From Comamonadaceae bacterium (GTDB taxonomy: Bacteria; Pseudomonadota; Gammaproteobacteria; Burkholderiales; Burkholderiaceae_C): a stretch of 64,000 bases of DNA. Location: contig JANXRP010000134.1 of assembly GCA_025352965.1 (NCBI GenBank), positions 11,179 to 75,178 on the forward strand, read 5' to 3'. Under the pieces are notes generated by a model that was not told the origin of the DNA, made no database searches, and was given only the letters and a program-made list of their open reading frames with translations. The position numbers and the translations under genes are program-made. Below, piece by piece: positions 35,649 to 54,884 of this stretch; positions within the stretch are counted from its first letter, which is position 1, and each line of letters begins with the position of its first letter.

Positions 35649-37487
35649 ATGGAATTCAATTTAGAACGCTTCGAGCATGCAGTTAATACACGTCAATATG
35701 AAGCGTCGGGACGCGAATTGATGCAGCTCTTGCAGATGTTAGATAACCACTATGGCAACTTAGCACCCAGCTTTTCAGCGAAGCCCATGGCCGCATTGGC
35801 TAATGGGGATGATGTTGATGCGCACATTTTGACTCGCATCGCCTCGGCAATCTCCCACCTATTTTTGGATCCAGGGTTCACACTTTCGCCACAAGGCTAT
35901 GCACAAGCATTGCAACTACAGCGATGGCTGGGCACACTATTTGCCGTGACGCCCTTTCGAAATGCCGATCACGTGATTCGAGCCTTGAATAACCTTGGCT
36001 GGGACAAGGATGAGCTACAGCTAACCCCAGACAACTTAAATAAATTTGCCTTACTGGCTTTCCCTGAATCCGAGATTCCTATCAATTTGGATGGGCTTTG
36101 GGCTGCCAACCCGGCCTTGGCGGTCAGTTTGTGCATGCTATGGATGGCGCCAAGATTTTTGGCCTCGCCGTCTGCACATGCCAAGCGTGAACTTGTATTG
36201 GGCTGGCTACCAGAAAAATTACAACAGATGGATTTGGATCAACTTCCGTCTGGCATCATGCACGATGTCTACATGCATTGCAGCTATGCGGATCGACCCG
36301 ATCGTCATCGCATCAAAGGTGCGATCAACGTTATCGTGCGCAACAAAATGCTGCAAAACGGGTTATCGGATGCACCACCACTAAACCCTTTGCCCAAAGG
36401 TGAAAAACCAACCATGTTGGTCGTACTCGAATGGTTCAATGGATCCCACTCGATTTACCGCACGCACTCGACCACCATGCGTGCTGCGCGCCGCCACTTT
36501 CATGTTGTCGCGATGGGCTATCCTAGCAACGTAGACGACTTAGGGCGTGCCGTATTTGATGAATTTATTGAAATCAAAGGTGGCTCGATGATCGAGCAAA
36601 TGGCACATATCCGTGATACGGCTATTGCCAAGCAAGCACGACTTTTCTATATGCCAAGTGTGGGGATGTTTCCGCTCACCATGTTCGCCTGTAATTTGCG
36701 CTTCGCTCCGCTACAAGTGATGGCGCTCGGCCATCCTGCTACCACGCATTCACCGCACATGGACTACGTTGTGGTCGAAGACGACTACGTCGGCCTTGAG
36801 AGCTGCTTCTCGGAGAAGCTACTACGTCTGCCCAAAGATGCGCTGCCCTATGTGCCCTCTGCCGCAATGCCAGAAAACTTAGTTCCCAATCTGCGTGACA
36901 ACGACGGCAAAAATCCAGACATAGTCAAGATTGCGATTTGCTCCACCACGATGAAGCTCAACCCGCGTTTTTTGCAAACGTGCAAAGCGATTGTGGACAC
37001 AGCCAAAACACCTGTGCTTTTCGAGTTTATGGTTGGACAGGCAACCAGTTTGATACATCCGCAAGTTAGCCGCGTGATTAAGCAATTCTTAGGGGATAAC
37101 GCGCATGTCAATCGCCATCTGGGTTATCCAGAGTACATGGCCAAAATCAATGAATGCGATATGTTCATCAATCCATTCCCTTTTGGTAATACCAATGGCA
37201 TTATTGACACCTTGACTTTAGGTCAAGTCGGCGTGTGCCTCAACGGTACAGAAGTATTCGAGTGCATTGACCGCGGCTTGTTTGGTCGTCTTGGCGTGCC
37301 CAGCTGGATGGCCACTAATTCCATCGAAGAGTACATCGCCGCAGCGGTACGCTTGATTGACAACCCAAAAGAGCGTCTCAAATTACGCCGCGAAATGATT
37401 GCTAAAAATGGTGTGCAAATTTTGTTCACAGGACGTCCCGAGATTTTTGGCGACCGGTTGATTGAACTGGTACACAAAGTGGCCTAA
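35649..37487 (+). CDS. HMW1C/ApNGT-like cytoplasmic N-glycosyltransferase (GT41, no TPRs)
   Basis: 612 aa. All-alpha N-domain plus GT-B. The motif strings HDVYMHCSY, HSIYRTHSTTM, LGHPATTHSPHMDYVVVEDDYVG, LLRLPKDALPYVPS, STTMKLNP and NPFPFGNTNGIIDTLTLG match my recollection of the H. influenzae HMW1C / A. pleuropneumoniae NGT family. They also parallel the OGT motifs GYPGT..MDY and NGHTTGMD. Confidence 0.75.
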   Translation: MEFNLERFEHAVNTRQYEASGRELMQLLQMLDNHYGNLAPSFSAKPMAALANGDDVDAHILTRIASAISHLFLDPGFTLSPQGYAQALQLQRWLGTLFAVTPFRNADHVIRALNNLGWDKDELQLTPDNLNKFALLAFPESEIPINLDGLWAANPALAVSLCMLWMAPRFLASPSAHAKRELVLGWLPEKLQQMDLDQLPSGIMHDVYMHCSYADRPDRHRIKGAINVIVRNKMLQNGLSDAPPLNPLPKGEKPTMLVVLEWFNGSHSIYRTHSTTMRAARRHFHVVAMGYPSNVDDLGRAVFDEFIEIKGGSMIEQMAHIRDTAIAKQARLFYMPSVGMFPLTMFACNLRFAPLQVMALGHPATTHSPHMDYVVVEDDYVGLESCFSEKLLRLPKDALPYVPSAAMPENLVPNLRDNDGKNPDIVKIAICSTTMKLNPRFLQTCKAIVDTAKTPVLFEFMVGQATSLIHPQVSRVIKQFLGDNAHVNRHLGYPEYMAKINECDMFINPFPFGNTNGIIDTLTLGQVGVCLNGTEVFECIDRGLFGRLGVPSWMATNSIEEYIAAAVRLIDNPKERLKLRREMIAKNGVQILFTGRPEIFGDRLIELVHKVA

Positions 37488-37506
37488 CTCATAGAACCTA
37501 AATAGC

Positions 37507-38745
37507 ATGCGACTTATTTATTGCGACACTGCACTGGCCGATTTAAATGGACACTACTATTCAGAGTGTCTGATGACAGTCAATGCGTTTGCAAATGCAG
37601 GTATTTTTTCGCATATTTTTGGTCATGTCGCGGCTAAAGATGTTAATTTAGCGCCACTGAACGTCGCACCTCATTTTCGAACGCAGAAGTGGGAATGGCT
37701 TGGTTTTTCTAACGACTTTTTATGCGGCCCCATAGAGTCACTACTCATTTCAGCCCATATCACCGCAGAAGACTTGGGGCGAATTGAAGGCTGGACAAAC
37801 ACTGACATCTTGTGCTGGAATCACATTACGCCTTCGGACTTATTTGCCTTAGGACTGTGGGGTAAAAATTTGCCCATAGACCAGACACCGCATTTTCTAT
37901 TGCACGTAGGTATACAGCCAGGTATCTACCCTATTGTTGAAGATGGCGAGCTATCGGGTCGCTTCGAAATTCTTGATCGCACCTCTGCTGAGCAATTCAG
38001 ACTAGCGGCTAAGCGTCTGCCGCAGCACATAAAAGATCGGGTTAAATTTATTGCATACGACGAATTAGCGGCCAAAAGTTACCAAGAAGTCTTGTTGCAA
38101 CCGGTGCATGTTGTGCCATTTTGCTCGTATGAAAATGCTAATCCTATTCAACGAAGCTCGTCAAAAATTACTGTCTCATACCTAGGCGTCCCCAGAGAGC
38201 CCAAAGGCTTTGGCACGGCCCCTTATGTTATTGAGCAACTCTTAACACAGACGCCTGAACATGTGAACTTTATGGTTCAGTTAGGTGGGGATTGGAAAAT
38301 TGGGGGAGACAGATCAAAAGATGAGCAGCAAATGATGCGTGATCTTGCAAGCAAAAATCCACGCGTCAAGGTTGTCCAAGGACCGCTTACCGAAACCGAG
38401 TGGCAAGGCATGTTAGACAACACCGACTTGCTGCTCCTTCCCTACCATCAGCAATCTTATGCCAGTCAAACTTCTGGCCCCTGCATGGAGGCGCTAGCGA
38501 ATGGCATTGTGCAGGTTGCAACCAATAAAACAACCATGGAGTTTGCACTTAAACGGCATGGTATGCCAGGTGTGTTGATTGACGAACCCACGGTTGAGGA
38601 AACGGTTCGTGGCGCGTTATCCGCCATTGCAAATTATGATGCGCTGGCCGTAAAGGCTTATGCTGCAAGCCAGCAATGGAGAAGTTTTCATAACCGTGAG
38701 AATTTTGCTGCACATGTTTTTAGACTATTGCAAGCTAACGTTTGA
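37507..38745 (+). CDS. Soluble GT-B fold glycosyltransferase (GT4-like)
   Basis: 412 aa with no TM segments. C-terminal Rossmann half with LLLLPYHQQSYASQTSGPCMEALANGIVQV resembles the GT4 E-x7-E region. Starts 19 nt after the NGT gene. Confidence 0.55.
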   Translation: MRLIYCDTALADLNGHYYSECLMTVNAFANAGIFSHIFGHVAAKDVNLAPLNVAPHFRTQKWEWLGFSNDFLCGPIESLLISAHITAEDLGRIEGWTNTDILCWNHITPSDLFALGLWGKNLPIDQTPHFLLHVGIQPGIYPIVEDGELSGRFEILDRTSAEQFRLAAKRLPQHIKDRVKFIAYDELAAKSYQEVLLQPVHVVPFCSYENANPIQRSSSKITVSYLGVPREPKGFGTAPYVIEQLLTQTPEHVNFMVQLGGDWKIGGDRSKDEQQMMRDLASKNPRVKVVQGPLTETEWQGMLDNTDLLLLPYHQQSYASQTSGPCMEALANGIVQVATNKTTMEFALKRHGMPGVLIDEPTVEETVRGALSAIANYDALAVKAYAASQQWRSFHNRENFAAHVFRLLQANV

Positions 38746-38797
38746 GTTAAAGAAATTGAATGCAACCAATCAGAACACAAGGACGAAAGGATAGGAT

Positions 38798-39526
38798 TTG
38801 AACCAAGTCAATAAACCGATTGTCACCCAAATTGAGGAGGCAGTTCAAAACATTCCCGGATGGTGCCCCATTGACCAACTGTTGTTGTTATTTACCCTCG
38901 CCCATACCAGTGCCGATCTAGACGGTGATATTCTTGAACTTGGATCGTGGTGCGGACGCTCAGCCGTGGCTATGGGAATGGCGATCCAGTTATCAGGAAA
39001 CTCAAAGCTCCACTGTGTTGATTTGTTTCCTAAAAAAGAAGACTGGCACAAAACTCCTGATGGTGACTATTCTCTTTCGGTCAATATTGATGATCGTAAT
39101 GTCGTGGCATACGCCCACGGTGGACAAACTGTTTGGGCGGAAGCCTTCGAGCGAGATATTGCTCCTGTTTACGAAAAATTTCCAGGCACCCTTGAGGCTT
39201 TCAATACTTTCGTTGCAGAAAATGGATTGTCAGAACAACTCATTCCTTTTAAGGGCGACTTACAAAGTTTTATCAAAAATGCGTCTTCCGGCTTGAAGCT
39301 TCGTATGGCATTTATTGATGGTGATCACAACTATCATGCGGTTGCAAAAGACATTGAAATTATTGAACGGTTTTTGGTGCCTGGCGCTTGGGTTTGTTTT
39401 GATGATGCCTTTTCGAATTATCCAGGAGTTAATAAAGCCATTGAACTACACATCATTCATAGTGGGAAATATAGTCAATTTCAACAAATGACACGGAAAT
39501 TTTTTATTGCGCGGTATATAGGGTAA
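38798..39526 (+). CDS. Class I SAM-dependent methyltransferase (Methyltransf_24/CmcI-like)
   Basis: 242 aa. Motif I GDILELGSWCGRSAV and FIDGDHNYHAV. The only plausible start is TTG at 38798. Confidence 0.6.
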   Translation: MNQVNKPIVTQIEEAVQNIPGWCPIDQLLLLFTLAHTSADLDGDILELGSWCGRSAVAMGMAIQLSGNSKLHCVDLFPKKEDWHKTPDGDYSLSVNIDDRNVVAYAHGGQTVWAEAFERDIAPVYEKFPGTLEAFNTFVAENGLSEQLIPFKGDLQSFIKNASSGLKLRMAFIDGDHNYHAVAKDIEIIERFLVPGAWVCFDDAFSNYPGVNKAIELHIIHSGKYSQFQQMTRKFFIARYIG

Positions 39527-39563
39527 TTGTGATTAGGCTCTGAATTTATAATTAACCATTAAT

Positions 39564-40514
39564 ATGAAAATACTTGTTACAGGTGCCTGTGGGTATAAAG
39601 GGCATGTTCTCGTTCCTAAGCTACTAATCAAAGGCTATAAAGTAATTGCCTTTGATCTACAATGGTTTGGGAATTTCTTAGATCCACATCCAAATTTGAC
39701 CATTATAAAAGGTGATGTTCGTGAGATAAATACTATTCCCTTAGATGGTGTGGATTGCATTATTCATCTGTCATCAATCGCAAATGATCCTTGTGGCGAT
39801 TTAGATCCCAAGTTGACTTGGGAAGTTAGCGCACTAGCGACGATGCAACTAGCTGACAAAGCGAAAAGAGCAGGTGTTAAACGTTTTATATATGCATCCT
39901 CAGGTAGTGTTTATGGAATCAAAGATGAATTGCAAGTAACTGAAGATTTAGAATTAACCCCTATCTCAGAATACAATAAAACAAAAATGGTCGCTGAGCG
40001 AGTTTTATTGAGCTACGACAATGATATGACAGTACAGATAGTGCGTCCTGCTACTGTCTGCGGCTATTCACCACGTATGCGTTTGGATGTTTCTGTTAAT
40101 TTATTAACCATGCAAGCCATTACAAATAAGAAAATTACAGTCTTTGGTGGCGATCAAGTGCGACCAAATATTCATATTGAAGACATAACAGATTTATATA
40201 TTTTTTTAATTGAGCATCCGGAATTAAAAGGTATCTACAATGCTGGCTTTGAAAATATTTCCATACTAGATATTGCAAAACTAGTGACTAAATTTATTGA
40301 TGCAGAAATAATCTTAACCCCATCTAATGATCCTCGATCTTATCGAATCAATTCTGATAAATTACTAGCCACTGGATTTAAACCTCAAAAAACAGTTTTA
40401 AATGCTATAGAAGAAATAATTGAAAAATACAATCAAGGAAAATTAAAAAATGAAGATAAATTTCATAATTTAATTTGGATGCAAAAAACTATATTAAATA
40501 AAATAACACACTAA
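39564..40514 (+). CDS. NAD-dependent sugar-nucleotide epimerase/dehydratase (extended SDR)
   Basis: 316 aa. Contains VTGACGYKGHV (GxxGxxG) and the catalytic YNKTK. Confidence 0.8.
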   Translation: MKILVTGACGYKGHVLVPKLLIKGYKVIAFDLQWFGNFLDPHPNLTIIKGDVREINTIPLDGVDCIIHLSSIANDPCGDLDPKLTWEVSALATMQLADKAKRAGVKRFIYASSGSVYGIKDELQVTEDLELTPISEYNKTKMVAERVLLSYDNDMTVQIVRPATVCGYSPRMRLDVSVNLLTMQAITNKKITVFGGDQVRPNIHIEDITDLYIFLIEHPELKGIYNAGFENISILDIAKLVTKFIDAEIILTPSNDPRSYRINSDKLLATGFKPQKTVLNAIEEIIEKYNQGKLKNEDKFHNLIWMQKTILNKITH

Positions 40515-40517
40515 CAT

Positions 40518-41117
40518 ATGAATAACGTGCACAATCTTGAAGATCATTTTGAGCAATATTCGGCTAAGTTGCAACGGATACTTGCCAGCACTGAATGGGA
40601 TAATGTATCACAGCTTGCACAAGATCTTCTATCATGTTGGAAAAGGAAGTCCCATGTATATATATGTGGTAATGGCGGTAGTGCTGGAAACGCCAATCAT
40701 CTAGCCAATGATTTTATTTATGGCATTGCAAAAATGACAGGTGCCGGATTGCGGATATCAAGCTTATCCACAAATACCTCAGTTATTACCTGCTTAGCGA
40801 ATGATATTGGTTATGAAAAAATTTACTCAGAGCAACTTGCAGTACTTGGTCAAAAGAATGATCTTCTTATTACATTAAGTGGCAGTGGAAATTCCTCCAA
40901 CATCATAAATGCTCTCAAGCAAGCAAAGGAGATGGAGATAAAGTCATACGCAATACTAGGATATGATGGCGGCGCTTGCAAAGAAATTGCAGATATATTT
41001 ATACATTTCCCTGTGAATGACATGCAAATGGCAGAAGATTTACAACTGATATCAGGTCATATGATTATGCAATGGCTCTATAACAATAAAAATCAGATTC
41101 AATCAAATATTCATTGA
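40518..41117 (+). CDS. SIS-domain sugar-phosphate isomerase, GmhA-like paralog
   Basis: 199 aa. Contains VYICGNGGSAGNANHLANDF and TLSGSGNSSNI, as in phosphoheptose isomerase. Confidence 0.75.
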   Translation: MNNVHNLEDHFEQYSAKLQRILASTEWDNVSQLAQDLLSCWKRKSHVYICGNGGSAGNANHLANDFIYGIAKMTGAGLRISSLSTNTSVITCLANDIGYEKIYSEQLAVLGQKNDLLITLSGSGNSSNIINALKQAKEMEIKSYAILGYDGGACKEIADIFIHFPVNDMQMAEDLQLISGHMIMQWLYNNKNQIQSNIH

Positions 41118-41150
41118 TAACTAATTACATTTCTATTATTAATTGTTAAA

Positions 41151-42308
41151 ATGTTAAATAAAAAAAATATAATTTTAATGGGGATGCAAATATCCGATCG
41201 AATAATATTGATGGGAAAATTATGGAAGAATTTAAATCATACTGTAATTTTACTATATTGCAATGAGAGTATTGTTTTCACAAACTTAAAAAACGAATCA
41301 TTTGATGTCATAATAAAAGCACAAAATGCTGATGAATTATTAACCATAGCAATGAAAATCAGCAACTCAATTTTTCATTATTTCAACTACGGCCCCGATC
41401 AACTTGGATATTATCTTTATTCAAATAAATTCACTTATATATATGATTATAAGGATTTATTTTCAAACGTAGTACATCAAACTATTGATGATAACTCATT
41501 AGCAATTGAAAAAGAGATTGTAAAAAACTCTGTTGCCATTACCCGTAGGGATGAGCAAATATTTTACTATCTAAAAATGAATAATATTGATTATGATCTA
41601 GAAAAAATAATATATTCCCCAGGCTATTTTAACAAAGAGATTGAGTATGAAAAAAAAGTCATATCAAATCTATCAAATTATTATGTAGATAAACCTATCA
41701 AAATAATTATGAGTGGCGGCTACTTATCGGAAAGTAATCCTGAATCTATATTATATGAAGGCATATCACATTTAGTTAAACAATTTGCAGGTAATGGACT
41801 GGAAATTGATTTGATTGGCAATTTTTCATCCTCTTTATCACATGAAGCCAGCAATTTCCCATTGCTCACTGAGCTTGTTAGTAGAAAATGGGTGAATATT
41901 TTACCTATGACTAATTCAGAGGATTTTGATAATGTTTTATTAAATTATGATTTTGCAATGCATATGTTTAATTTTGATGTAATTGAATCAGATTACACGA
42001 TTCAATTTAAAAATTCAAATTTATTAGATTACGGCGGAAGCGCTAGAATATACTCATTTATAAAAGCTAATCTTCCAATCATCCTTGGAAAATCGCTACC
42101 TCATATTAAAAATATATTGGAAAATTCAGGGTTCGCAATTGAATACCGTGATGAATACAAAGACTCCATGAAGAATATTTTAAATAATTATAGAGTAGCA
42201 AATTATAAAAAAGAAATATATCCATATCGAGATAAGTTCAATGATAGAGTTGCTACGATTAAATTTAAAGAAAACATAAAACAAATTGGAAAGGAAATAT
42301 ATGCGTGA
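41151..42308 (+). CDS. Hypothetical protein; possibly a very divergent GT-B-like enzyme
   Basis: 385 aa, extremely AT-rich codons, no TM segments, and no motif I can name. Two Rossmann-like halves are suggested (NIILMG..., IKIIMSGG...IDLIGN...). The coding call rests on ORF length and operon packing. Confidence 0.4.
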   Translation: MLNKKNIILMGMQISDRIILMGKLWKNLNHTVILLYCNESIVFTNLKNESFDVIIKAQNADELLTIAMKISNSIFHYFNYGPDQLGYYLYSNKFTYIYDYKDLFSNVVHQTIDDNSLAIEKEIVKNSVAITRRDEQIFYYLKMNNIDYDLEKIIYSPGYFNKEIEYEKKVISNLSNYYVDKPIKIIMSGGYLSESNPESILYEGISHLVKQFAGNGLEIDLIGNFSSSLSHEASNFPLLTELVSRKWVNILPMTNSEDFDNVLLNYDFAMHMFNFDVIESDYTIQFKNSNLLDYGGSARIYSFIKANLPIILGKSLPHIKNILENSGFAIEYRDEYKDSMKNILNNYRVANYKKEIYPYRDKFNDRVATIKFKENIKQIGKEIYA

Positions 42309-42999
42309 AATTGAAAAAAAAATCCGCGCCTTTGAAATGCGATTGCAAGCCAATATGAAGGAAGTTTTTTGTCCAGTTCATTTGTCACTAGGGCATGAGT
42401 CGGTGGCAGCAGACTTACATGAAGTTATGCAGTCTGGTGATTGGCTATTTTCAACACACCGGAATCATCATCATTATTTAGCAAAGGGCGGATCAGAAGA
42501 AAAGCTTTGGGATGAAATAATGGGATTAAAGTCTGGCATCAATGGTGGATTTGCTGGCTCACAAGCGGTTGTAGATCCAAGCATTAATTTTCACTCTAGT
42601 GCAATATTAGGTGGCCTTATAGGCGTTGCAGCAGGGACTGCAATGGCTTTAAAATTAAATAATAGCAATGATATATCGATTTGTGGCATAGGTGACGCAG
42701 GAACTGAGCAAGGTGTATTTTGGGAGAGTCTAAACTTTGCTGCATTGCATAATTTGCCTGTTGCATATATTTGTGAAAACAACGGAAAGTCTGTTGATGC
42801 ACTAATTGAAGAAAGGCAGGCAATGCCTATCAGCTCAAGAGTTGCAGCTTTTGGAGTCACTACATTTAATAATGTGAAAGTAGCTATCGATTTTTGTAGA
42901 AAAGAAAAAAAACCTGTATTTTGCGAAATTAAAGTCAACTTAGAATGTGCACACATCAACATGGCAACCATGCTTGATTTGTGTGCGCATACAGCTTAA
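42301..42999 (+). CDS. Thiamine-diphosphate-dependent dehydrogenase E1 alpha-like subunit (short form)
   Basis: About 233 aa. Contains HLSLGHESVAADL...STHRNHHHYLAKGG (the E1-alpha HLxxGQEA...YRxH pattern). The ThDP motif is GIGDAGTEQGVFWESLNFAALHNLPVAYICENNG (GDG...NN). The start is placed at the ATG at 42301 after AAGGAA. Confidence 0.7.
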   Translation: MREIEKKIRAFEMRLQANMKEVFCPVHLSLGHESVAADLHEVMQSGDWLFSTHRNHHHYLAKGGSEEKLWDEIMGLKSGINGGFAGSQAVVDPSINFHSSAILGGLIGVAAGTAMALKLNNSNDISICGIGDAGTEQGVFWESLNFAALHNLPVAYICENNGKSVDALIEERQAMPISSRVAAFGVTTFNNVKVAIDFCRKEKKPVFCEIKVNLECAHINMATMLDLCAHTA

Positions 43000-43020
43000 T
43001 ATATTTTGAAGGTATTCATA

Positions 43021-43677
43021 ATGAATATGAATTTAAAAAATACAAAAAAAACATTTGCTTCAGAAATAAATCGTGCGCTTCATGACTCATTAGAGGCAGA
43101 TTCAAACGTAGTCGTTGGTGGGCAACTCGTTAAGTATGGAGTTGCTGGTTTGACAACTGGTCTTTATGATAAATTCAAGAATCAATTTATTACATACTCT
43201 GTATCGGAATCTTTAATGAATTCTAGTGCGATGGGATTAGCACTTGCTGGCAAGCGTGTCGTTATGATTCATGTCAGGATTGATTTTTTAGCTAGCGGTA
43301 TGTGCGCGTTAGTCAATCATGTCCCAATATGGTATAAAAAAGGATTGAAAATGCCTATTACCTATATTTGTCAAGTAGGTAAAGGAATGGGGCAAGGTGC
43401 CCAACATAGTAAAGATCTCACTAGTTGGTTTCAAAATTTTGAAGGCTGGACCGTAAAAATACCTGAAACGCCACAACAAGCGTTCGATATGCTTCAAGAG
43501 TCTATAAAAGGTGATAAGCCAGTTATGTATGTTATACATCGCGAGCTTTTCGATTTACCAGAAGGAAAAAAAATTACTATCAATAAAGAAATTAAATTAT
43601 GCGGAGCTAGCCAAGAGCATGAATCAGATTTTTACGGAGCTGAATTCATTTCAGCTAAAAGTAAACTTATAAAGTAA
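43021..43677 (+). CDS. E1 beta-like subunit (transketolase pyrimidine-binding domain only)
   Basis: About 218 aa. FASEINRALHDSLEADSNVVVGGQLV...YSVSESLMNSSAMGLALAGKRVVMIH follows the E1-beta Pyr-domain pattern. The C-terminal transketolase domain is absent. Confidence 0.7.
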   Translation: MNMNLKNTKKTFASEINRALHDSLEADSNVVVGGQLVKYGVAGLTTGLYDKFKNQFITYSVSESLMNSSAMGLALAGKRVVMIHVRIDFLASGMCALVNHVPIWYKKGLKMPITYICQVGKGMGQGAQHSKDLTSWFQNFEGWTVKIPETPQQAFDMLQESIKGDKPVMYVIHRELFDLPEGKKITINKEIKLCGASQEHESDFYGAEFISAKSKLIK

Positions 43678-43734
43678 GCTTCTCCGAAAGTAAAAAATCG
43701 CATCTAACCGCATTCAGTAGTTAAAAATTTTATA

Positions 43735-44997
43735 ATGAACATAAAAATATTAAATGATTATGATTCCTTTGAGCTAGCTAATGGGAGTAAGCGCGGGGAT
43801 TTTGATATCGTTTTATATGGTGCTGGTACAGCTGTAAGTTCGTATGCCAGAATGGCGCTAGCAGCGCTCCGTCATCTAGGTGTTGAGCCTCTATGCTTTA
43901 TAGACGACGACCCGAAAAGAATTGGTGAATCATTTTTAGGTATTCCTATTTTTAAACCTGAATATTTAAATTTATTAGATAAAAAATGCATTGTGCTTGT
44001 GTCAAGTAACTATTTTCCAAGCATTACGAATACGCTCCAGCGACTAAATTATCAAGGTCTTCTTTATAGCTTGACTCCACTTCTGCGATCAAGCGCGCCT
44101 GAAGCCTTTGAGTCGCTAATGTCTTTTGATGAAGTATTGCGGCGATTACACACGCATCATTCCAAACTTGAAAGATTTAGTTCAGCCGAAAATCTCAATA
44201 AACCTGTAGTCTTAAACGCTATCGATATACAAGTGACCGAGCGTTGCTCAATGAAATGTATTGACTGTTCAAATTTAATGCAATATTACGAGCAGCCTAA
44301 GGATGCAAACACAGAGGATTTTTTAAGTAACATCGCCACTCTCATCCGGTCCGTACAGCGCATTGATGATGCCCGAGTTTTGGGAGGGGAGCCTTTTATG
44401 TATAAAGACTTGCCTCAGATCCTAAATTTACTTTCTCACAGTGAAAAAATTGTGAGAGTTACAGTATATTCTAATGGAACTTTCGTTCCTAGAGAAGATA
44501 TATTAAATGCACTTATTCATCCAAAAATAGAAGTGGAAATTACTGACTACGATGAACTTTCAAAAAAACATGATCAAGTCGTAAATACATTCAAAAATCT
44601 TCATATTCGATATATCACTCATAAACCACAAAATTGGACTGATTCGGCTAGGATTGTTAAAAATAATAAAACTGTGAATGAGCTTAATACAATGTTTGAA
44701 AGATGCTGCGTCAATGATGCATTAACACTTTTGCATGATAAGCTTTATCATTGTCCATTTTCAGCAAATGCATATAATTTAAAAGCAATACCTGATGATT
44801 CAACGGATTACATTGAATTTCCTTCTATTGAAAAAAATGAAAATATTCAAGAAAAAATAAATCAATTTTATTTCAAAAAAAATCATTTATCAGCTTGTCA
44901 ATATTGTTTAGGTCGAGATTTTACTCAAGAGGCAGTTGTAGCTGCCATACAGACAAAAAAAGCAATTCCAATCCCTGTCGTATGGGTAAAGAATTAA
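43735..44997 (+). CDS. Radical SAM enzyme with N-terminal Rossmann-like module and Cys-rich C-terminal (SPASM/twitch-like) region
   Basis: 420 aa. CxxxCxxC is present (ERCSMKCIDCSN). C-terminal cysteines are CCVND...HCPF...ACQYCLG. The N-terminus reads DIVLYGAGTAV...CFIDDDPKRIG. Confidence 0.75.
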   Translation: MNIKILNDYDSFELANGSKRGDFDIVLYGAGTAVSSYARMALAALRHLGVEPLCFIDDDPKRIGESFLGIPIFKPEYLNLLDKKCIVLVSSNYFPSITNTLQRLNYQGLLYSLTPLLRSSAPEAFESLMSFDEVLRRLHTHHSKLERFSSAENLNKPVVLNAIDIQVTERCSMKCIDCSNLMQYYEQPKDANTEDFLSNIATLIRSVQRIDDARVLGGEPFMYKDLPQILNLLSHSEKIVRVTVYSNGTFVPREDILNALIHPKIEVEITDYDELSKKHDQVVNTFKNLHIRYITHKPQNWTDSARIVKNNKTVNELNTMFERCCVNDALTLLHDKLYHCPFSANAYNLKAIPDDSTDYIEFPSIEKNENIQEKINQFYFKKNHLSACQYCLGRDFTQEAVVAAIQTKKAIPIPVVWVKN

Positions 44998-46373
44998 TAA
45001 AAATTTCATTCATAATACCCACATTCAGATCCACTCTGAATGGGTTAATTAATTATATTGAAAAAATATTGATTAAAACTAAGCTAGATGCAGAAATTAT
45101 TATTATAAATGATTTGCATACTAGGGTTTTATGTATCCATGACTTTCCTGATAAATTTGAATTTTTAAATATTAATATAATTAACAATTTAGAAAATAAA
45201 GGGCCTGGATATTCTAGAAATATAGGTATTTCTAGTGCAAAAAATTCATATCTATGTTTTTTAGACGATGACGATGACTTATCTATAGAGGGGTTAGAGA
45301 AGCTAAAACTACTTTGCAATGATGCAGACTTAATTTGCCTCAAATTTTTTGATTCAAAAGGCACCTTTTCAAACCATTCTATTGTTAAATCTTTCCCTAA
45401 TGGAGCCAGCTACACTGGAGATTTTTATGTTAAAACTATTAATAAGTTAGGATTTTTGGCTTCTCATTGTCAACCATATTTATTTCAAAAAAAATTTTTA
45501 AATAACAACAATCTAAAATATCCAAATACTTACATTGTCGAAGATATCTCTTTTGTAACGGCATGCCTCATTCAATGTAAAAAAATATCTGTCTATAATT
45601 TTGATTTTTATATTTATGCATCCCGATCTGGCACTTTGAAAGAGGATGCTAATTTTTTACGACTTATTGACATTTTTTTCGCCCAAAATTGGCTTCAATC
45701 TTATTTTTCAAAAAATTTTGAAGCTGAAAAAAAAGAATTATTAAAAAAAACTATTACCTTATTAAATTTACTTTTCATTTGCCGTGTTATTTATAACGAA
45801 ACTAATTCATTTCAAAGAAATAATGCATCTTATTTTGATGAAACATCAGACAAAATTTTACATTCAATATTGAACAGTGAAGAAATAAATCAATATTTAG
45901 AAAAAATTCATTCGAATAATTACTCAAAATCAATTAGTAACCAATCTGCGCAAACCATAACAAACGAACTAGGCTATTATTTTTCACACATTAGAAATAA
46001 AATTAAAGAAAAAATAATTTCAAAAACTAATCCGCTTGAAATCACATTATTATATTGTTATGGTCCCATATCAATTGGTTATTTTTTAATGTTTAAAAAA
46101 ATTAATCCCATGTCTAAAATTTTCTTTATTGATGACAATATAAATAGTCAACAGAAAAAAAATATCTCTTATGGAGAATATACAATGCGTGTCGAAGAAT
46201 TTATCTCTAATAATAATTTAAATTTAAAAAAATGTGATTTAAAAATTATAATTTGTCATCTACATTTTCATGTGATAAAAAAAATACATGCAAAATCAAT
46301 TCGCGATTTCAAAAAATTTAGCAATGCTAATTTTTCTCTCACGATTAATGATTTATATACAGTTTTTGATTAA
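44982..46373 (+). CDS. Family 2 glycosyltransferase with about 220-aa C-terminal extension
   Basis: Start at MGKELIKISFIIPTF (44982), overlapping the radical SAM gene by 16 nt. The GT-A motifs are IIINDLHT, GPGYSRNIG and FLDDDDD. Confidence 0.75.
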   Translation: MGKELIKISFIIPTFRSTLNGLINYIEKILIKTKLDAEIIIINDLHTRVLCIHDFPDKFEFLNINIINNLENKGPGYSRNIGISSAKNSYLCFLDDDDDLSIEGLEKLKLLCNDADLICLKFFDSKGTFSNHSIVKSFPNGASYTGDFYVKTINKLGFLASHCQPYLFQKKFLNNNNLKYPNTYIVEDISFVTACLIQCKKISVYNFDFYIYASRSGTLKEDANFLRLIDIFFAQNWLQSYFSKNFEAEKKELLKKTITLLNLLFICRVIYNETNSFQRNNASYFDETSDKILHSILNSEEINQYLEKIHSNNYSKSISNQSAQTITNELGYYFSHIRNKIKEKIISKTNPLEITLLYCYGPISIGYFLMFKKINPMSKIFFIDDNINSQQKKNISYGEYTMRVEEFISNNNLNLKKCDLKIIICHLHFHVIKKIHAKSIRDFKKFSNANFSLTINDLYTVFD

Positions 46374-46382
46374 ATTAAAAAC

Positions 46383-47822
46383 ATGAATACTAAAATAGTT
46401 TTTGTTTCAGGTCGTTTTAATGTACTGCATCCTGGTCATTTGCGTTTGTTGCGCTTTGCAAAATCATATGGCAATCGGTTAATAGTAGCTGTCGAGAGCG
46501 ATGAAAGCGCAGGCAAGTATGCACTTGTGCCAGAACAGCTCAGGCTAGAAGGCGTACAGAGCAACAGCTGTGTTGATGAGGCCTTTATTGCGCATGAATC
46601 AATTCCTAGTTTAATAACCAAATTACAACCCGATTTTGTTGTAAAAGGTAAGGAGCATGAATCATTATTCAATCCTGAATTATTTGCTCTAGAACAATAC
46701 GGAGGCCATTTGGTCTTCAGCTCTGGAGAGGCCATTTTTTCTTCATTGGATTTAATTCGAAAAGAATTTAGTAGTTTTGATCCATCCTCTATCAGCCTAC
46801 CATCTGAATATCTTGCTAGGCATCAGATTCAGGTTCAGCATCTAATCCGCTTAATTGCACAGTTTGCAAAATTAAATGTTTGCGTCTTAGGTGATTTAAT
46901 CGTCGATGAGTACATCACTTGTGAACCGCTAGGAATGTCCCAAGAAGATCCTACCATTGTCGTTACACCCATTGATTCAATCCGCTTTATTGGTGGTGCT
47001 GGTATCGTTGCAGCGCATGCGGCTGGGCTTGGCTCTTGCGTAAGTTTTGTGTCAGTAGCTGGGATTGACGATGCAAGAGATTTTGCCATAAAAAAACTTT
47101 CGGATGCCGACGTGCACTTACATATCCTAACCGATAGTAGCCGCCCTACAACGCTAAAACAGCGTTTTCGCTGTAAAGGTAAAAGCCTTCTGCGGGTAAG
47201 TCATTTGCGTCAAAATGCTATATCAATAACATTACAAGAACAATTATTAAAAAAAATTGAAACTATACTAAAAAATGGCATTGATTTACTAGTTTTTTCA
47301 GATTTTAATTATGGCTGCCTCCCACAACCCTTGGTAGATAGGATTATTCAAAGGGCTAAAAAATATGGCGTATTATTAGCCGCAGATAGTCAATCGTCGT
47401 CACAAATGGGCGATGTCAGTCGCTTTGTAAGCATGGATTTAATCACACCCACCGAGCATGAGGCACGCATTAGCACGCGTAATCACGAAGATGGTTTAGT
47501 TGTACTCGCTGAGTCACTTAGAACTCAATCTTTCGCCAAAAATATATTACTTAAAATGGGCGAAGAAGGGTTGCTTATTCATGCTGTTAATAATAAAGCT
47601 AATAATTCATGGCTTACAGACCGCGTCGATTCTCTTAATAGTTCACCGAAGGATGTGGCTGGTGCGGGCGACTCGCTACTCATTGCGAGCGCTCTAACTT
47701 TGGCAAGTGGAGGCAATATTTGGGAGGCCGCATGTCTTGGCTCACTTGCTGCAGCAGTGCAGGTTGGACGTGTTGGAAATACACCAATTCAAGCTGCGGA
47801 GTTATTGCAGGAGCTTATCTAA
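46383..47822 (+). CDS. Bifunctional cytidylyltransferase-like nucleotidyltransferase (N-terminal) + PfkB/ribokinase-like sugar kinase (C-terminal); HldE-like with reversed domain order
   Basis: 479 aa. The N-terminus, FVSGRFNVLHPGHLRLLRFAKSYGNRLIVAV, carries an HxGH motif. The C-terminus, DVAGAGDSLLIASAL, carries the PfkB signature. Confidence 0.7.
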   Translation: MNTKIVFVSGRFNVLHPGHLRLLRFAKSYGNRLIVAVESDESAGKYALVPEQLRLEGVQSNSCVDEAFIAHESIPSLITKLQPDFVVKGKEHESLFNPELFALEQYGGHLVFSSGEAIFSSLDLIRKEFSSFDPSSISLPSEYLARHQIQVQHLIRLIAQFAKLNVCVLGDLIVDEYITCEPLGMSQEDPTIVVTPIDSIRFIGGAGIVAAHAAGLGSCVSFVSVAGIDDARDFAIKKLSDADVHLHILTDSSRPTTLKQRFRCKGKSLLRVSHLRQNAISITLQEQLLKKIETILKNGIDLLVFSDFNYGCLPQPLVDRIIQRAKKYGVLLAADSQSSSQMGDVSRFVSMDLITPTEHEARISTRNHEDGLVVLAESLRTQSFAKNILLKMGEEGLLIHAVNNKANNSWLTDRVDSLNSSPKDVAGAGDSLLIASALTLASGGNIWEAACLGSLAAAVQVGRVGNTPIQAAELLQELI

Positions 47823-48565
47823 TGCGAGCCCTGCTTTTAGCAGCCGGCCTTGGGACACGACTAAGACCAATTACAAATGTGATGCCAAAATGTTTAGTGA
47901 AAATTAATGGCCGGCCACTACTTGATTATTGGTTGGAACTCTTAAGTCAAGCGGGCATCACTGAGGTGCTTATTAATTTGCATTATCTGCCAGAACAAGT
48001 TTTAGATTATATAAAAACTTGCAAATATCCAATAACAATAACAACTGCATTTGAGGAAAATTTATTGTCAACGGCTGGAACAATTTTAAAAAATAAAGAT
48101 TTTTTAAAAAAAGAGCCTTTTTTTGTTATACATGCAGATAATTTATCAATATTCAATGTAAATGAATTTAAGGAAAAGTTTTATAGGCGAGAATCTACCG
48201 TGGAAATTACGATGATGACATTTTATACAGATTCCCCCAAAGAGTGCGGCATAGTGGAGTTAAACAGTAATAATATTGTTTCCGCTTTTCATGAAAAAGT
48301 GACCTCGCCTCCAAGCAATCTCGCAAATGGAGCTGTATACATTATTTCACCTCTAGTTGTTGATTTCATATCAAGTCTTAAATTAACAGTGATAGATTTT
48401 AGTACTCAAGTACTTCCGCATTTTATGGGGCGTATCAATACTTACCACAATCATTTTTATCATCGAGATATCGGAACGATCACCAGCCTCGAAATTGCAG
48501 AAAAAGAATATCCTAAATATTCAAAGCTTTATCATCAACATTTTATACAAACATCCCTTTTATAA
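47822..48565 (+). CDS. Sugar-1-phosphate nucleotidyltransferase (HddC/RmlA-fold)
   Basis: Start at MRALLLAAGLGTRLRPIT (47822, a TAATG overlap with the upstream stop). G-x-G-T-R-L nucleotide-binding motif. Confidence 0.75.
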   Translation: MRALLLAAGLGTRLRPITNVMPKCLVKINGRPLLDYWLELLSQAGITEVLINLHYLPEQVLDYIKTCKYPITITTAFEENLLSTAGTILKNKDFLKKEPFFVIHADNLSIFNVNEFKEKFYRRESTVEITMMTFYTDSPKECGIVELNSNNIVSAFHEKVTSPPSNLANGAVYIISPLVVDFISSLKLTVIDFSTQVLPHFMGRINTYHNHFYHRDIGTITSLEIAEKEYPKYSKLYHQHFIQTSLL

Positions 48566-48617
48566 AATCAACACAAGATTCTATAAACATCGCTGAAATA
48601 GCAACTCTAATTGACAC

Positions 48618-49598
48618 ATGATTATTTCTAAAACTCCTCTTCGCGTTAGTTTTTTTGGTGGTGGAACCGACTTACCAGAGCACTTCTCCAAACATGGTGG
48701 AGCTGTGCTTGGTACGGCAATTGATAAGTTCGTCTACATTTCAGCCTCACGTTTTCCATCCGAGCTATTTGATTACAGTGTGCGGCTGGCTTATAGTAAA
48801 GTTGAAAACGTGAAGAGCGTTGCTGACATACAACATGCCCCTGTTCGCGAAATTTTAAAACTCAACGATATCGAAAAAGATATTGAAATTAGCATTTCCG
48901 CAGATCTTCCCTCCTTTTCTGGGCTGGGCAGCTCTAGCAGCTTTACGGTCGGCATGCTTAAAGCCATCAAAGCTTATAAAAACGAACATATTGCCACGAA
49001 TATCTTAGCTCGTGAAGCCATTCGTATTGAAAGAGATGTCCTCAAAGAGGCTGTGGGCTTTCAAGATCAAGTATTTGCGGCGTTTGGTGGATTTAATATT
49101 ATTGAATTTAGTGGGCAAGATCGAATGCGTGTTGAGCGGCTGTCACTCAGCCTCGATCGTGAGCAAGAGTTAAGGTCGCATTTAATGATGTTCTATACGG
49201 GCATCACTCGGCGTGCGCAAGGTATCGAAAAAACAAAAATTGCCAACATTTCTGCGCTTGAAGGTCGCCTAACGTCCATGCGCCATATGGTGGATGATGC
49301 TCATACCGTATTGACATCCAAATCTTCACTCACTCGTTTGGGCGAGTTATTGCACAAAACTTGGATAGAAAAAAGGCAACTAACCAGTGATGTTAGCAAT
49401 CCAACTATTGACGAAATGTATAAAAAAGCGCTAACAGCTGGTGCTATTGGCGGCAAGTTACTCGGAGCTGGAGGTGGAGGATTTATGCTGTTTTTTGTAC
49501 CACCAGATAAGAAAGTTGCTGTTAAATCTGCGCTAAAAAATTATCATGAAATCACATTTAATATCAACGCTGCGGGCAGTACGATTATTCATTCTTAA
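48618..49598 (+). CDS. GHMP-family sugar kinase, HddA/WcbL-like (D-glycero-alpha-D-manno-heptose-7-phosphate kinase type)
   Basis: 326 aa. N-terminus MIISKTPLRVSFFGGGTDLPEHF, GHMP motif II PSFSGLGSSSSFTVG, and C-terminal KLLGAGGGGFMLF. Confidence 0.75.
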   Translation: MIISKTPLRVSFFGGGTDLPEHFSKHGGAVLGTAIDKFVYISASRFPSELFDYSVRLAYSKVENVKSVADIQHAPVREILKLNDIEKDIEISISADLPSFSGLGSSSSFTVGMLKAIKAYKNEHIATNILAREAIRIERDVLKEAVGFQDQVFAAFGGFNIIEFSGQDRMRVERLSLSLDREQELRSHLMMFYTGITRRAQGIEKTKIANISALEGRLTSMRHMVDDAHTVLTSKSSLTRLGELLHKTWIEKRQLTSDVSNPTIDEMYKKALTAGAIGGKLLGAGGGGFMLFFVPPDKKVAVKSALKNYHEITFNINAAGSTIIHS

Positions 49599-49609
49599 GC
49601 GTCAAAATA

Positions 49610-50176
49610 ATGAGTAATTTTAAAATTCAGCTAGATTCAGTTGCATCCAGTTTAGATCTTTTACATGCTTCTACGGAAACGTCTATCCAAGAAGCAATCG
49701 CCTTACTAAGTCATGCGCTTAAAGTTCGACTGCCTGTTTTAGTCTGCGGCAATGGCGGATCAGCCGCTGACGCACAGCATATTGCTGGAGAAATGGTGGG
49801 CAAATTTCTTGCCGAACGCAAAGCCTTAAATGTGCGTGCGCTGTCAACGGATACTTCTGTGATTACGGCTTGGGCTAACGATGTGAGCTATGACACGGTC
49901 TTTTCTAGGCAAGTGGAGGCCTATGGGCAGCCAGGTGGCGTGCTTTGGGCCATATCGACAAGTGGCAACTCTAAAAATGTGATTGAAGCAGCCTTGCAAG
50001 CTAAAAAACAAGACATGAAAGTAATTGGTATGACGGGCGAAGGAGGCGGGGCATTGGCAAACTTATGCGATATATTGATTGCCGCTCCATCCAAATATAC
50101 GCCTCGCATCCAAGAGATGCATATGATGATTTACCATCACATTTGTGAAATGATTGAAAAAAAATTTGTTAAATAA
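49610..50176 (+). CDS. gmhA: Phosphoheptose (sedoheptulose-7-phosphate) isomerase
   Basis: 188 aa. Contains VLVCGNGGSAADAQHIAGEMVGKF and ISTSGNSKNV. Confidence 0.8.
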   Translation: MSNFKIQLDSVASSLDLLHASTETSIQEAIALLSHALKVRLPVLVCGNGGSAADAQHIAGEMVGKFLAERKALNVRALSTDTSVITAWANDVSYDTVFSRQVEAYGQPGGVLWAISTSGNSKNVIEAALQAKKQDMKVIGMTGEGGGALANLCDILIAAPSKYTPRIQEMHMMIYHHICEMIEKKFVK

Positions 50177-50192
50177 ATTTAAAAGGTTAAGT

Positions 50193-51125: not shown

Positions 51126-51130
51126 ATTGA

Positions 51131-52336: not shown

Positions 52337-52349
52337 TTGGACTGCCGCA

Positions 52350-53240: not shown

Positions 53241-53252
53241 AAACCCCCGATC

Positions 53253-54164: not shown

Positions 54165-54179
54165 TCAGCGTCTCTTTGC

Positions 54180-54884
54180 ATGAAAAAATTAACAGCATTG
54201 ATACTGGCTGGTGGATTCGGAACAAGGCTGCAAAGCGTTGTCAAAGATGTCCCCAAACCCATGGCCGACGTGCGGGGTGAACCATTTTTAGCGCACCTCA
54301 TACGCTACTACCAATTACAAGGCGTGACTCAGTTTGTGTTGTCCGTTGGGTACAAGGCTGACACCATCATCGATTATTTTAGCGATAGCTTTGAGTCAGC
54401 CTCCATACAATACATCCGCGAGAATGTGCCGCTTGGTACTGGCGGTGCGATCAAATACGCGCTCAACCATCTTGCAACCGATTGGCAACCAGATTTGATC
54501 CTCAACGGTGACACGTGGTACGAGGCCAATGTCTCTGAGCTGATTGGATTTGCGATGGCTAAGCATGTCCCTGTTTCTCTATCAGTCAAACCCTTGCCGT
54601 TAAATGATCGGTACGGATCAGTCGTACTTGAAGCAAGTGGACGTATCAGCGGTTTTCGCGCAGATCCAAGTGATCACGCTAATATCAACGCAGGCTGTTA
54701 TTACATCCAAGCTGCGACCTTGCAAACTATCCTTGCCGGCTATCCAGATACCTTTTCGTTTGAATCTAGCTGCCTACCCCAGCTCGCTCAAGCAGGTCAA
54801 CTTTCAGGCTATATTTGCGATGCCACGTTCTTAGATATTGGCATACCCGAAGACTACGCCAAAGCAGCTAGCTTGCTGCCTTGA
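54180..54884 (+). CDS. Sugar-1-phosphate nucleotidyltransferase, HddC-like
   Basis: 234 aa. Contains [22 protein letters not shown]. The 3' end overlaps the convergent galU by 17 nt. Confidence 0.75.

Follow-up and report, generated by a model that had tools for sequence, protein, structure and literature searches.

Two-subunit enzymes resembling the E1 component of the 2-oxo-acid dehydrogenases are used in nature for branching of sugars. These E1 alpha/beta pairs, named alphaKADH2 in a 2025 review, take a C2 unit from pyruvate and attach it to sugars with a keto group at C3 or C4 in the aldgamycin, kosinostatin, kibdelomycin, paulomycin and trioxacarcin pathways; about 120 gene clusters are counted, and KbDH-alpha/beta is active in vitro on sugar analogues (PMC12247030). 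The E1-type branching of avilamycin and everninomicin sugars has also been covered (PMC4753412, PMC10338323). E1-type branching has been described from actinomycete antibiotic clusters (PMC12247030), and in Gram-negative glycans sugars are described as branched by enzymes of the YerE type (PMC9306805). Here we describe a shortened E1 alpha/beta pair, called mini-E1 below, that is encoded next to a radical S-adenosylmethionine (SAM) enzyme in a sugar-gene island of a Comamonadaceae bacterium (assembly GCA_025352965.1). The island lies in a 64,000-nt stretch of contig JANXRP010000134.1, referred to as the window; all coordinates are positions in this stretch, and all features listed are on the + strand. 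By analogy with the alphaKADH2 enzymes we propose, with moderate confidence, that a nucleoside diphosphate (NDP)-heptose is oxidised to a keto-sugar, that mini-E1 transfers an acetyl unit from pyruvate to it, and that a further modification, made by the radical SAM enzyme, follows.

The mini-E1 pair and the described branching enzymes

An initial annotation of the stretch had assigned three open reading frames (ORFs) at 42301-44997 to an E1 alpha subunit, an E1 beta subunit and a radical SAM enzyme. All three are present and the coordinates fit start and stop codons: position 42301 is the ATG of the alpha gene, whose homologues begin MREIEK, and 44997 is the final base of the radical SAM stop codon. 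The alpha subunit, 232 amino acids (aa) long, matches PF00676 (E1_dh; E-value 4.7e-28) along profile positions 14-220 of 300 only, and the 223-aa beta subunit matches PF02779 (Transket_pyr; 5.1e-19) and has no Transketolase_C domain, so the truncation that had been claimed for both subunits is real. The motifs that had been pointed out are likewise found in the translations. CPVHLSLGHE and IGDAGTEQGVFWE...ICENNGKSVD are present in alpha, the motif binding the diphosphate of thiamine diphosphate (ThDP) and Mg (GDAG...ENN) is intact, and Glu68 of beta corresponds in the alignment to the Glu that activates the cofactor in human E1 beta and is kept in at least 95% of 78 aligned family sequences. 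The match between alpha and human E1 alpha spans residues 12-179 (E-value 5e-17).

In the dehydrogenase complexes, E2 docking and lipoyl acetylation use the C-terminal domain of E1 beta (Transketolase_C) and the last third of E1 alpha. Both regions are missing from mini-E1. Judged from the domain matches, the parts of E1 that serve the dehydrogenase complex have thus been lost, and what is retained are the two domains of the cofactor site, PP in alpha and Pyr in beta. As part of the pathway proposed above, and with the same moderate confidence, we regard the pair as a putative minimal heteromeric ThDP carboligase.

The best named families for the pair are the alpha and beta subunits of pyruvate dehydrogenase E1, which might suggest a decayed or ordinary metabolic E1 (for pyruvate, acetoin or branched-chain substrates) that has ended up in a sugar island by chance. 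This is hardly credible. The scores are far under the equivalog cut-offs (130 bits against 394 for alpha and TIGR03182, 53 against 321 for beta and NF006667), and the E2-related regions are lacking from both subunits. No E2, E3 or lipoyl domain was found by Pfam in the ORFs scanned, which were about 50 of the 62 window ORFs of at least 150 aa and included all of at least 350 aa; the absence of such partners had been claimed from the start. The truncated form is furthermore conserved, with 60-93% identity in the best 120 of 525 alpha homologues (224-272 aa), and in the loci compared mini-E1 is always found with sugar genes. A canonical metabolic E1 was rejected on architecture, scores and context.

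When it comes to the alphaKADH2 pairs, such as AlmDI/DII (aldgamycin), AviB1/B2 (avilamycin), Pau11/12 (paulomycin), EvdU5/EvdS3 (everninomicin) and KbDH-alpha/beta (kibdelomycin), the likeness is considerable. Mini-E1 is a two-subunit E1 without E2 and E3, it has the GDG...NN motif and the beta Glu, it stands alone in the window, and it is set among nucleotide-sugar genes with a short-chain dehydrogenase/reductase (SDR) nearby that by homology could supply an NDP-keto sugar; a transfer of a C2 unit from pyruvate would be expected. The window subunits differ in being reduced to PP and Pyr domains and in belonging to a family found in a betaproteobacterium and in phages. They probably act on a heptose, and the sugar is probably destined for a glycan on protein or the cell surface and not for an antibiotic; the family also has a twitch-type radical SAM enzyme as recurrent partner.

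The yersiniose and erwiniose of Gram-negative lipopolysaccharide (LPS) get their branch from the acetolactate-synthase-like enzymes YerE and ErwE, which act on CDP-3,6-dideoxy-4-keto-glucose; YerE is a flavoprotein (PMC9306805). The role proposed here, in which ThDP serves to add an acyl anion to an NDP-4-keto sugar for a Gram-negative glycan, would be the same, but the architectures are unrelated. YerE is a single-chain member of the decarboxylase superfamily with TPP_enzyme_N, M and C domains, whereas the window pair consists of E1_dh and Transket_pyr; it has neither a TPP_enzyme_N nor an M domain, and the TPP_enzyme_C match over the ThDP motif is sub-threshold (19.8 against 21.9 bits).

Gene neighbourhoods in bacteria and phages

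The pair is part of an island of 19 genes (35649-54884), all on one strand and packed tightly or overlapping. Its features are:

35649-37487, + strand: HMW1C/NGT-like cytoplasmic protein N-glycosyltransferase (NGT; Pfam HMW1C_N, HMw1_D2), first gene of the island
37507-38745, + strand: GT1/GT4-like glycosyltransferase, weak (Pfam Glyco_trans_1_4 and Glycos_transf_1, both under cut-off)
38798-39526, + strand: class I SAM methyltransferase (Methyltransf_24, Pfam 4.3e-19)
39564-40514, + strand: extended SDR related to 6VO6 (35% identity to 6vo6_A), proposed NDP-heptose C4 dehydrogenase
40518-41117, + strand: GmhA-like SIS isomerase with the variant tetrad His/Asp/Glu/His (TIGR00441, 128 bits against a 209-bit cut-off)
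41151-42308, + strand: glycosyltransferase of a rare family with a predicted GT-B fold, overlapping the mini-E1 alpha start by 8 nt
42301-42999, + strand: mini-E1 alpha, ThDP diphosphate-binding (PP) domain only, 232 aa (PF00676)
43006-43677, + strand: mini-E1 beta, Pyr domain only, 223 aa (PF02779); the start may be ATG 43021 or 43027
43735-44997, + strand: radical SAM enzyme, 420 aa (PF04055, 3e-8), with a Rossmann-like N-terminal domain and a twitch-type core
44982-46373, + strand: GT2 glycosyltransferase (PF00535, 2.3e-12), the start overlapping the radical SAM stop codon
46383-47822, + strand: domain-swapped HldE-like enzyme, N-terminal nucleotidyltransferase and C-terminal PfkB heptose kinase (Pfam CTP_transf_like, PfkB)
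47822-48565, + strand: sugar-1-phosphate nucleotidyltransferase (PF00483, 4.1e-32)
48618-54884, + strand: second heptose module in the same operon, with HddA-like kinase, canonical-type GmhA, SDR, TylC3-type C-methyltransferase, FkbM methyltransferase, Fcl-like SDR and HddC-like transferase

The alpha subunit has at least 525 homologues at E <= 1e-5 and the radical SAM enzyme 521 at E <= 1e-3, and the observation is therefore well beyond chance. In an alignment of 22 alpha sequences the average column identity is 65%; the family signature is S[TY]HRNHHH (alias S[TY]HRNHHHYLAKGG), and the C-terminal residues Cys221 and His223 are invariant. Neither NCBIfam nor Pfam has a model specific for mini-E1 or for either of the two radical SAM families, and none of NCBIfam, Pfam and PHROGs has a functional model for mini-E1.

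Loci (L-numbers) from genome, metagenome and viral collections were compared by tblastn and ORF clustering. For the short family, to which the window pair belongs, linkage was counted in 19 non-redundant loci having at least 4 kb on both sides, with neighbours within 6 kb. The beta gene follows alpha in all 19. A SIS gene is found in 17, an SDR gene of the 39564 type in 16, a radical SAM gene in 10 and an HldE-like gene in 8, and the tightest block across loci is SIS-SDR-E1 alpha-E1 beta. The same core is seen on independent contigs with Pfam annotation (SDR, SIS, E1_dh, Transket_pyr and CTP_transf_like with PfkB), one of which also has a haloacid dehalogenase (HAD) phosphatase and lies near FlgN. 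The adjacency of the radical SAM and GT2 genes recurs in L001, L002, L037, L041, L045 and L047. The initial annotation had placed an SDR and a GmhA-like gene before the pair; both are indeed upstream, but the 385-aa gene at 41151-42308 lies in between.

Members of a more distant family, sharing 32-45% identity, are encoded by Elusimicrobia, Omnitrophota, Patescibacteria and an anammox metagenome-assembled genome (MAG). They have full-length subunits (alpha 320-350 aa, beta 340-370 aa) and are again accompanied by an SDR, an HldE-like gene and GmhA. A radical SAM/SPASM gene is found directly upstream of E1 and another downstream; with phage members included, the distant group comprises 22 non-redundant loci, and 16 of these have such a gene within 6 kb of E1. 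This recurrence in the distant group means that the linkage of the ThDP enzyme to radical SAM and its linkage to heptose genes are both old and recurrent.

Two further proteins of the cassettes are without a specific model in NCBIfam or Pfam. A 310-aa protein is found in 22 cassettes of phages and bacteria (e.g., L033, 9261-10190) and a 236-aa protein, weakly methyltransferase-like, in 12 loci (e.g., L001, 9216-9923). Neither is present in the window, and their profiles gave no convincing match to window proteins apart from a weak one to the methyltransferase at 38798-39526, which is thus weakly related to the 236-aa protein.

Judged by Pfam, phage genes (for a P22-like portal protein, a capsid protein or the large terminase) are present in eight of the 19 short-family loci. 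In the phage cassettes the order is GmhA-SDR-E1 alpha-E1 beta-GT2-radical SAM-methyltransferase, and the genes lie between those for the portal and the scaffold/major capsid proteins. An example is the 45-kb IMG/VR contig IMGVR_UViG_3300028802_000026 (L112, 531-18000), and the same cassette is found in L046, L049, L056, L058, L064, L068, L072, L104 and L113 from groundwater and soil metagenomes. The position between portal and capsid genes suggests a possible role in virion glycosylation. A 454-aa protein containing tetratricopeptide repeats (TPR) is encoded after the capsid gene in these phage loci.

IMG/VR contains 73 contigs with relatives of mini-E1. Most of them have a minimal module consisting of E1 alpha (206 aa), E1 beta (174 aa), a radical SAM/SPASM protein (364 aa) and a glycosyltransferase-like protein (259 aa, phrog_1574), and the genes are translationally coupled with overlapping stops and starts. 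On IMGVR_UViG_3300003823_000001 (L122, 9986-13006) the minimal module adjoins recombination genes (RecT-like, RusA-like), and it is shared by about 40 similar IMG/VR contigs. The minimal phage module is without SDR, isomerase, kinase and nucleotidyltransferase. With no sugar-activating genes in the module, the E1 would therefore act on an already activated sugar.

In cultured T4-like cyanophages the two subunits are fused. These proteins, SSM2_198 of Synechococcus phage S-SM2 (NC_015279.1, 149421-150629; L185) and gp190 of Prochlorococcus phage P-TIM68 (NC_028955.1, 167767-168912; L186), are annotated as "transketolase central region-containing protein" and belong to phrog_34187, for which the PHROGs function listing reads unknown. 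The single chain of about 400 aa matches the window alpha with an E-value of 1.6e-20 (33% identity) and beta with 2.4e-8. Since alpha and beta are fused here, the window pair can be taken as one enzyme. According to the annotations the surroundings encode a phosphoheptose isomerase, a heptose kinase/adenylyltransferase, a carbohydrate kinase, epimerases and glycosyltransferases, so that phrog_34187 shares with the window both the PP and Pyr domains and the heptose gene setting. It differs in being a fused chain and in its partners: a Zn-alcohol dehydrogenase gene lies directly upstream in both phages, and no radical SAM gene was found in either mini-E1 block.

The block of S-SM2 also contains a class II aldolase, and E1 chemistry begins with decarboxylation of a 2-oxo acid. 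Both fit an enzyme that does not ligate at all but decarboxylates a sugar-derived or other 2-oxo acid, giving an aldehyde or acyl group that decorates the glycan and leaves no C-C branch. We consider this very unlikely, given that neither a 2-keto-3-deoxy-acid synthase of the KdsA/NeuB type nor an acyl carrier or acyltransferase was found in the window cassette by Pfam and NCBIfam, and that the characterised stand-alone E1 pairs of sugar clusters are carboligases (PMC12247030).

Partner enzymes and the proposed pathway

The SDR at 39564-40514 is encoded three genes upstream of mini-E1 alpha. It has the Ser, Tyr and Lys residues of an SDR in the motifs SSGSVYG and YNKTK, and the Asp/Glu pair of dehydratases was not seen in the sequence. 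Its best match in the PDB is 6vo6_A (E-value 4e-38, 35% identity), the runner-up being at 3e-24. We take 6VO6 to be Cj1427, a GDP-heptose C4-dehydrogenase of Campylobacter, and this assumption fits with another SDR of the island (50193-51125), which shares 58% identity with 6VO6 and sits after the HddA-like and GmhA genes of the second heptose module. Cj1427 releases GDP-4-keto-heptose (PMC10680097), and the characterised E1-type branching enzymes use ketone acceptors of this kind (PMC12247030). The island resembles the Campylobacter heptose pathway in its GmhA-, HddA- and HddC-like genes (all under the NCBIfam cut-offs) and in its two 6VO6-related SDRs. That pathway, in contrast, has no ThDP or radical SAM enzyme, and the SDR of the mini-E1 cassette is a distant paralogue tied to the HldE-like rather than the HddA/HddC route.

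The metal-binding and catalytic site of GmhA consists of His61, Glu65, Gln172 and His180. Numbering follows E. coli GmhA. In the aligned SIS proteins of the cassettes Glu65 is replaced by Asp and Gln172 by Glu, while His61 is kept and the His at position 180 is retained in all but two; the second GmhA of the window has the canonical tetrad. The protein at 40518-41117, called a GmhA-like isomerase in the initial annotation, does therefore belong to the SIS family, but it reaches neither an equivalog-level score nor the canonical tetrad. The alignment points to a distinct GmhA-like subfamily that probably still consists of isomerases, for which the substrate or the stereochemistry may differ.

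These departures from GmhA bring up a role for mini-E1 at the level of sugar phosphates. Similar to DXP synthase or transketolase, it would join the C2 unit of a 2-oxo acid to an aldose phosphate, and the resulting unusual ketose phosphate would be isomerised by the variant SIS protein and phosphorylated and nucleotidylated by the HldE-like enzyme, giving a higher or deoxy sugar without a branch. The systematic difference of the cassette SIS proteins from GmhA, with a score under the GmhA cut-off, would be explained, as would the second, canonical-type GmhA in the same operon; alpha also gives weak DXP_synthase_N matches, and SIS-SDR-E1 alpha-E1 beta is the tightest block. We nevertheless find such a role unlikely. 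With pyruvate as donor the product would be a 1-deoxy-ketose, which is no substrate for an aldose-ketose isomerase. Isomerase, kinase and nucleotidyltransferase are all lacking from the minimal phage modules, a nucleotide-sugar SDR is the strict partner, and the N-terminal domain of the radical SAM enzyme is like those of nucleotide-sugar enzymes.

The radical SAM enzyme has the motif TERCSMKCIDC, and the CSMKCIDC cluster motif and C-terminal cysteines that had been noticed earlier were both found. The CX3CX2C cysteines (C171, C175, C178) as well as C324, C325, C340, C388 and C391 are invariant in 30 sequences. A phmmer search gave 7WZV with an E-value of 5.5e-8, and this entry is titled "Twitch Radical SAM Dehydrogenase SpeY" in the PDB (title obtained via Foldseek). 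The AlphaFold2 (AF2) model has a pLDDT of 89, and SpeY 7WZV is also the top Foldseek match (E-value 6e-12, target TM 0.67, root mean square deviation 3.1 Å), followed by SkfB, BtrN and BlsE. Residues 1-150 make up a Rossmann-like domain that is similar to the 3NKL fragment and has a weak likeness to PglD_N; Rossmann-like domains of this kind bind nucleotide sugars. SpeY (spectinomycin, 7WZV) and BtrN (butirosin, 4M7T) share with the window enzyme the CX3CX2C motif, the C-terminal set of auxiliary-cluster cysteines and the twitch fold. The identity is only 19-20%, however, the 150-residue N-terminal domain is an addition, and the substrate of the window enzyme is presumably a nucleotide sugar. 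On sequence and modelled fold, the enzyme is no generic add-on but is similar to the twitch sugar dehydrogenases, and its linkage to mini-E1 extends over a long evolutionary distance.

The fold bears on how the labour is divided. BtrN and SpeY oxidise secondary sugar alcohols, and by the same chemistry the radical SAM enzyme could make the keto acceptor, the SDR acting later as a ketoreductase or epimerase on the acetyl branch (compare YerF and Pau7) or on the ring ketone. The minimal phage modules, where E1 alpha and E1 beta are found with a radical SAM/SPASM protein and a glycosyltransferase and without an SDR, agree with this order. So do the cyanophages that have no radical SAM gene and carry the Zn-alcohol dehydrogenase directly upstream of the fused mini-E1, which points to an alcohol/ketone oxidoreductase as the constant partner. 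Yet the SDR is the steadier partner in the family of the window (16 against 10 of 19 loci), its nearest solved relative is presumably a product-releasing C4 dehydrogenase and no reductase, and other twitch radical SAM enzymes serve as epimerases or dehydratases. We regard this order as somewhat unlikely.

In the order of steps that we favour, the variant SIS isomerase, the domain-swapped HldE-like enzyme and the extra nucleotidyltransferase would provide an NDP-heptose. The SDR at 39564-40514 would oxidise it to an NDP-keto-heptose, most likely at C4. Mini-E1 would then decarboxylate pyruvate and add the hydroxyethyl-ThDP carbanion to the ketone, giving a C-acetyl branched heptose with a tertiary alcohol. 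The radical SAM enzyme may bind the nucleotide sugar via its Rossmann-like domain and carry out a second, radical oxidation, an epimerisation or a ring-forming step on the sugar. The overlapping GT2, the likely transferase for the modified sugar, would build the glycan together with the GT-B and GT1-like enzymes, and assembly would probably take place on protein in the cytoplasm, primed by the NGT-like enzyme. The initial annotation had already suggested C-C branching of a nucleotide sugar, to which the stand-alone truncated E1, the heptose-nucleotide operon and the 6VO6-related SDR now lend support; the donor, the acceptor and the product, like the branching position, the order of the steps and the glycan target, are all inferred.

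A number of points weigh against this pathway. The case for mini-E1 is built from domain content, cofactor residues, the absence of E2 and E3, gene linkage and fold, and the likeness to alphaKADH2 is one of architecture, context and published descriptions. The described alphaKADH2 examples belong to actinomycetes (Streptomyces, Micromonospora, Kibdelosporangium), and compared with a canonical E1 the window pair is much shorter. Identity between the SDR and 6VO6 is no more than 35%, and 6VO6 is itself presumed to be Cj1427. The acceptor could be made by the SDR or by the radical SAM enzyme, which is also dehydrogenase-like, and a radical SAM gene is found within 6 kb in only about half of the short-family loci. 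A GmhB phosphatase gene was not found in the island, and the changed SIS tetrad means that the sugar may be no ordinary heptose.

The last step allows for a more far-reaching version, in which C4 oxidation and addition of the C2 acetyl unit at C4 are followed by ring closure by the radical SAM enzyme, giving a carbocyclic or bicyclic higher sugar. The enzyme would take a side-chain hydrogen, e.g., at C7, and close the ring with the carbonyl of the acetyl group. If a heptose carries a C2 unit at C4 and a C7-C8 bond, its carbon skeleton is that of caryose, a sugar for which the biosynthesis is given as unknown (PMC9092360). The radical SAM protein Cds is needed for calditol formation, and inactivation of HpnJ abolishes the bacteriohopanetetrol (BHT) cyclitol ether (PMC9092360); for an ability of radical SAM enzymes to cyclise sugars these results are evidence of a genetic, not a biochemical, kind. 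We find both the cyclisation and the connection to caryose quite unlikely for the window. If they were true, mini-E1 and the twitch radical SAM enzyme would make up a general mobile "branch-and-cyclise" module for decoration of proteins or virions.

The general chemistry of E1-type branching is already known. What appears to be new is the truncated architecture, the partnership with radical SAM, the heptose context, the distribution in Gram-negative bacteria and phages, and the possible protein-glycan target. Our literature search found no E1-type ThDP enzyme described in a heptose pathway, an NGT locus or phages, and neither a system combining heptose, ThDP and radical SAM enzymes nor a ThDP-dependent branching of heptose. 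A lead on E1 alpha/beta genes in the O-antigen region of Coxiella burnetii was dropped, as there was no mention of them in two Coxiella LPS papers. The expectation that such a branched sugar would be very unusual for proteobacteria gives only part of the picture, the gene family being widespread in uncultured bacteria and phages. If the proposed pathway is correct, an E1 reduced to two cofactor-binding domains has been reused together with radical SAM as a mobile module for C-branched (or rearranged) heptoses, spread through uncultured Proteobacteria, Elusimicrobia, candidate phyla and phage genomes including S-SM2 and P-TIM68. A family of more than 500 proteins would obtain a function, and new sugar structures would be predicted on NGT-type glycoproteins and maybe on phage virions or phage-modified host surfaces. 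The pair would also be a very small ThDP carboligase with which tertiary alcohols could be made.

The island and its variation between strains

The island has a GC content of 30-45%, against about 50% in the flanks. Housekeeping genes are found on both sides: upstream these are mltG-tmk-holB-tatD, downstream tex and a galU-like gene. Beyond the upstream flank there are genes for LptF/G, TolB, an O-antigen ligase and a GT9 protein. Neither tRNA, integrase nor repeats pointing to a recent insertion were found at the island borders, the sole tRNA being at 9354-9429, and a megablast search with the island against complete E. coli genomes gave no match. In clusters of at least 90% identity, the flanking proteins group with MAG proteins labelled Betaproteobacteria or Rhodoferax, so that the contig probably comes from a freshwater member of the Burkholderiales. 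Some closely related contigs carry other labels. L006, with 92-98% protein identity over the SDR, SIS and GT-B genes, is deposited as "Bacteroidota bacterium", and a near-identical contig of 258 kb as "Cytophagales bacterium", in conflict with the Betaproteobacteria/Rhodoferax housekeeping clusters. The conflicting labels are likely due to mis-binning.

The NGT-like protein encoded by the first gene scores 733 bits with NF049992 (NGTferase), which is under the 1000-bit cut-off. As in the HMW1C/NGT systems of Actinobacillus pleuropneumoniae (NGT) and Haemophilus (HMW1C), an NGT-like gene is followed by genes for soluble glycosyltransferases, but the window protein differs from these in its sub-equivalog score. 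The known NGT systems add hexoses, and to our knowledge none has linked heptose-modifying, ThDP or radical SAM genes. Pfam and NCBIfam scans of the island ORFs revealed no Wzx flippase, Wzy polymerase, ABC exporter or priming transferase. With an NGT-like first gene and no genes for export or polymerisation, a cytoplasmic protein glycan is the most likely product, so that of the surface or protein glycan first suggested the protein is now preferred and LPS less favoured. A role of the island in LPS O-antigen is less likely for the same lack of genes, though an O-antigen ligase and a GT9 heptosyltransferase encoded 15 kb upstream may keep this destination open.

The 385-aa protein encoded at 41151-42308, between the GmhA-like gene and mini-E1 alpha, has no match in Pfam or NCBIfam and only seven homologues among 5.8 billion proteins. 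Its AF2 model (pLDDT 78) matches GT4-type glycosyltransferases in Foldseek with E-values of about 1e-9. The two domains of the HldE-like enzyme score 174 bits (rfaE_dom_I) and 62 bits (rfaE_dom_II), both under cut-off, and the nucleotidyltransferase at 47822-48565 is HddC-like (88 bits) and RmlA-long-like (105 bits), also under the NCBIfam cut-offs. In the second heptose module the TylC3-type sugar C-methyltransferase consists of Methyltransf_13/14. This module looks like a route from a GDP-heptose via a 4-keto sugar to a C-methyl-branched heptose, in which case the island would make two different branched heptoses.

A sister strain (L188; GCA_030054145.1, JASGCK010000004.1, 10001-21839) has kept both flanks and the NGT, the latter from the same cluster at 90% identity or more, while the sugar genes following NGT are entirely unlike those of the window. 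They encode three GDP-Man-dehydratase-like SDRs, a CapD-like protein, DegT and two GT2 enzymes, and a split transketolase-like ThDP pair (272 aa and 306 aa) is found next to the DegT aminotransferase. With the same flanks and NGT and different sugar genes, this is a strain-variable glycan island anchored by NGT, and a two-subunit ThDP enzyme is present in both alleles.

Further upstream, 15 kb from the island, the region 14851-20871 encodes an MsbA-like ABC transporter, an AT3+SGNH acyltransferase, the O-antigen ligase (Wzy_C) and the GT9 heptosyltransferase mentioned above. Downstream of this LPS-related block a PMT-family (ArnT-like) transferase (24591-26060) and LptF/G are encoded. A 220-aa ankyrin-repeat protein (28609-29271) is an unusual neighbour beside tatD-holB-tmk-mltG, and it is kept in the sister strain.

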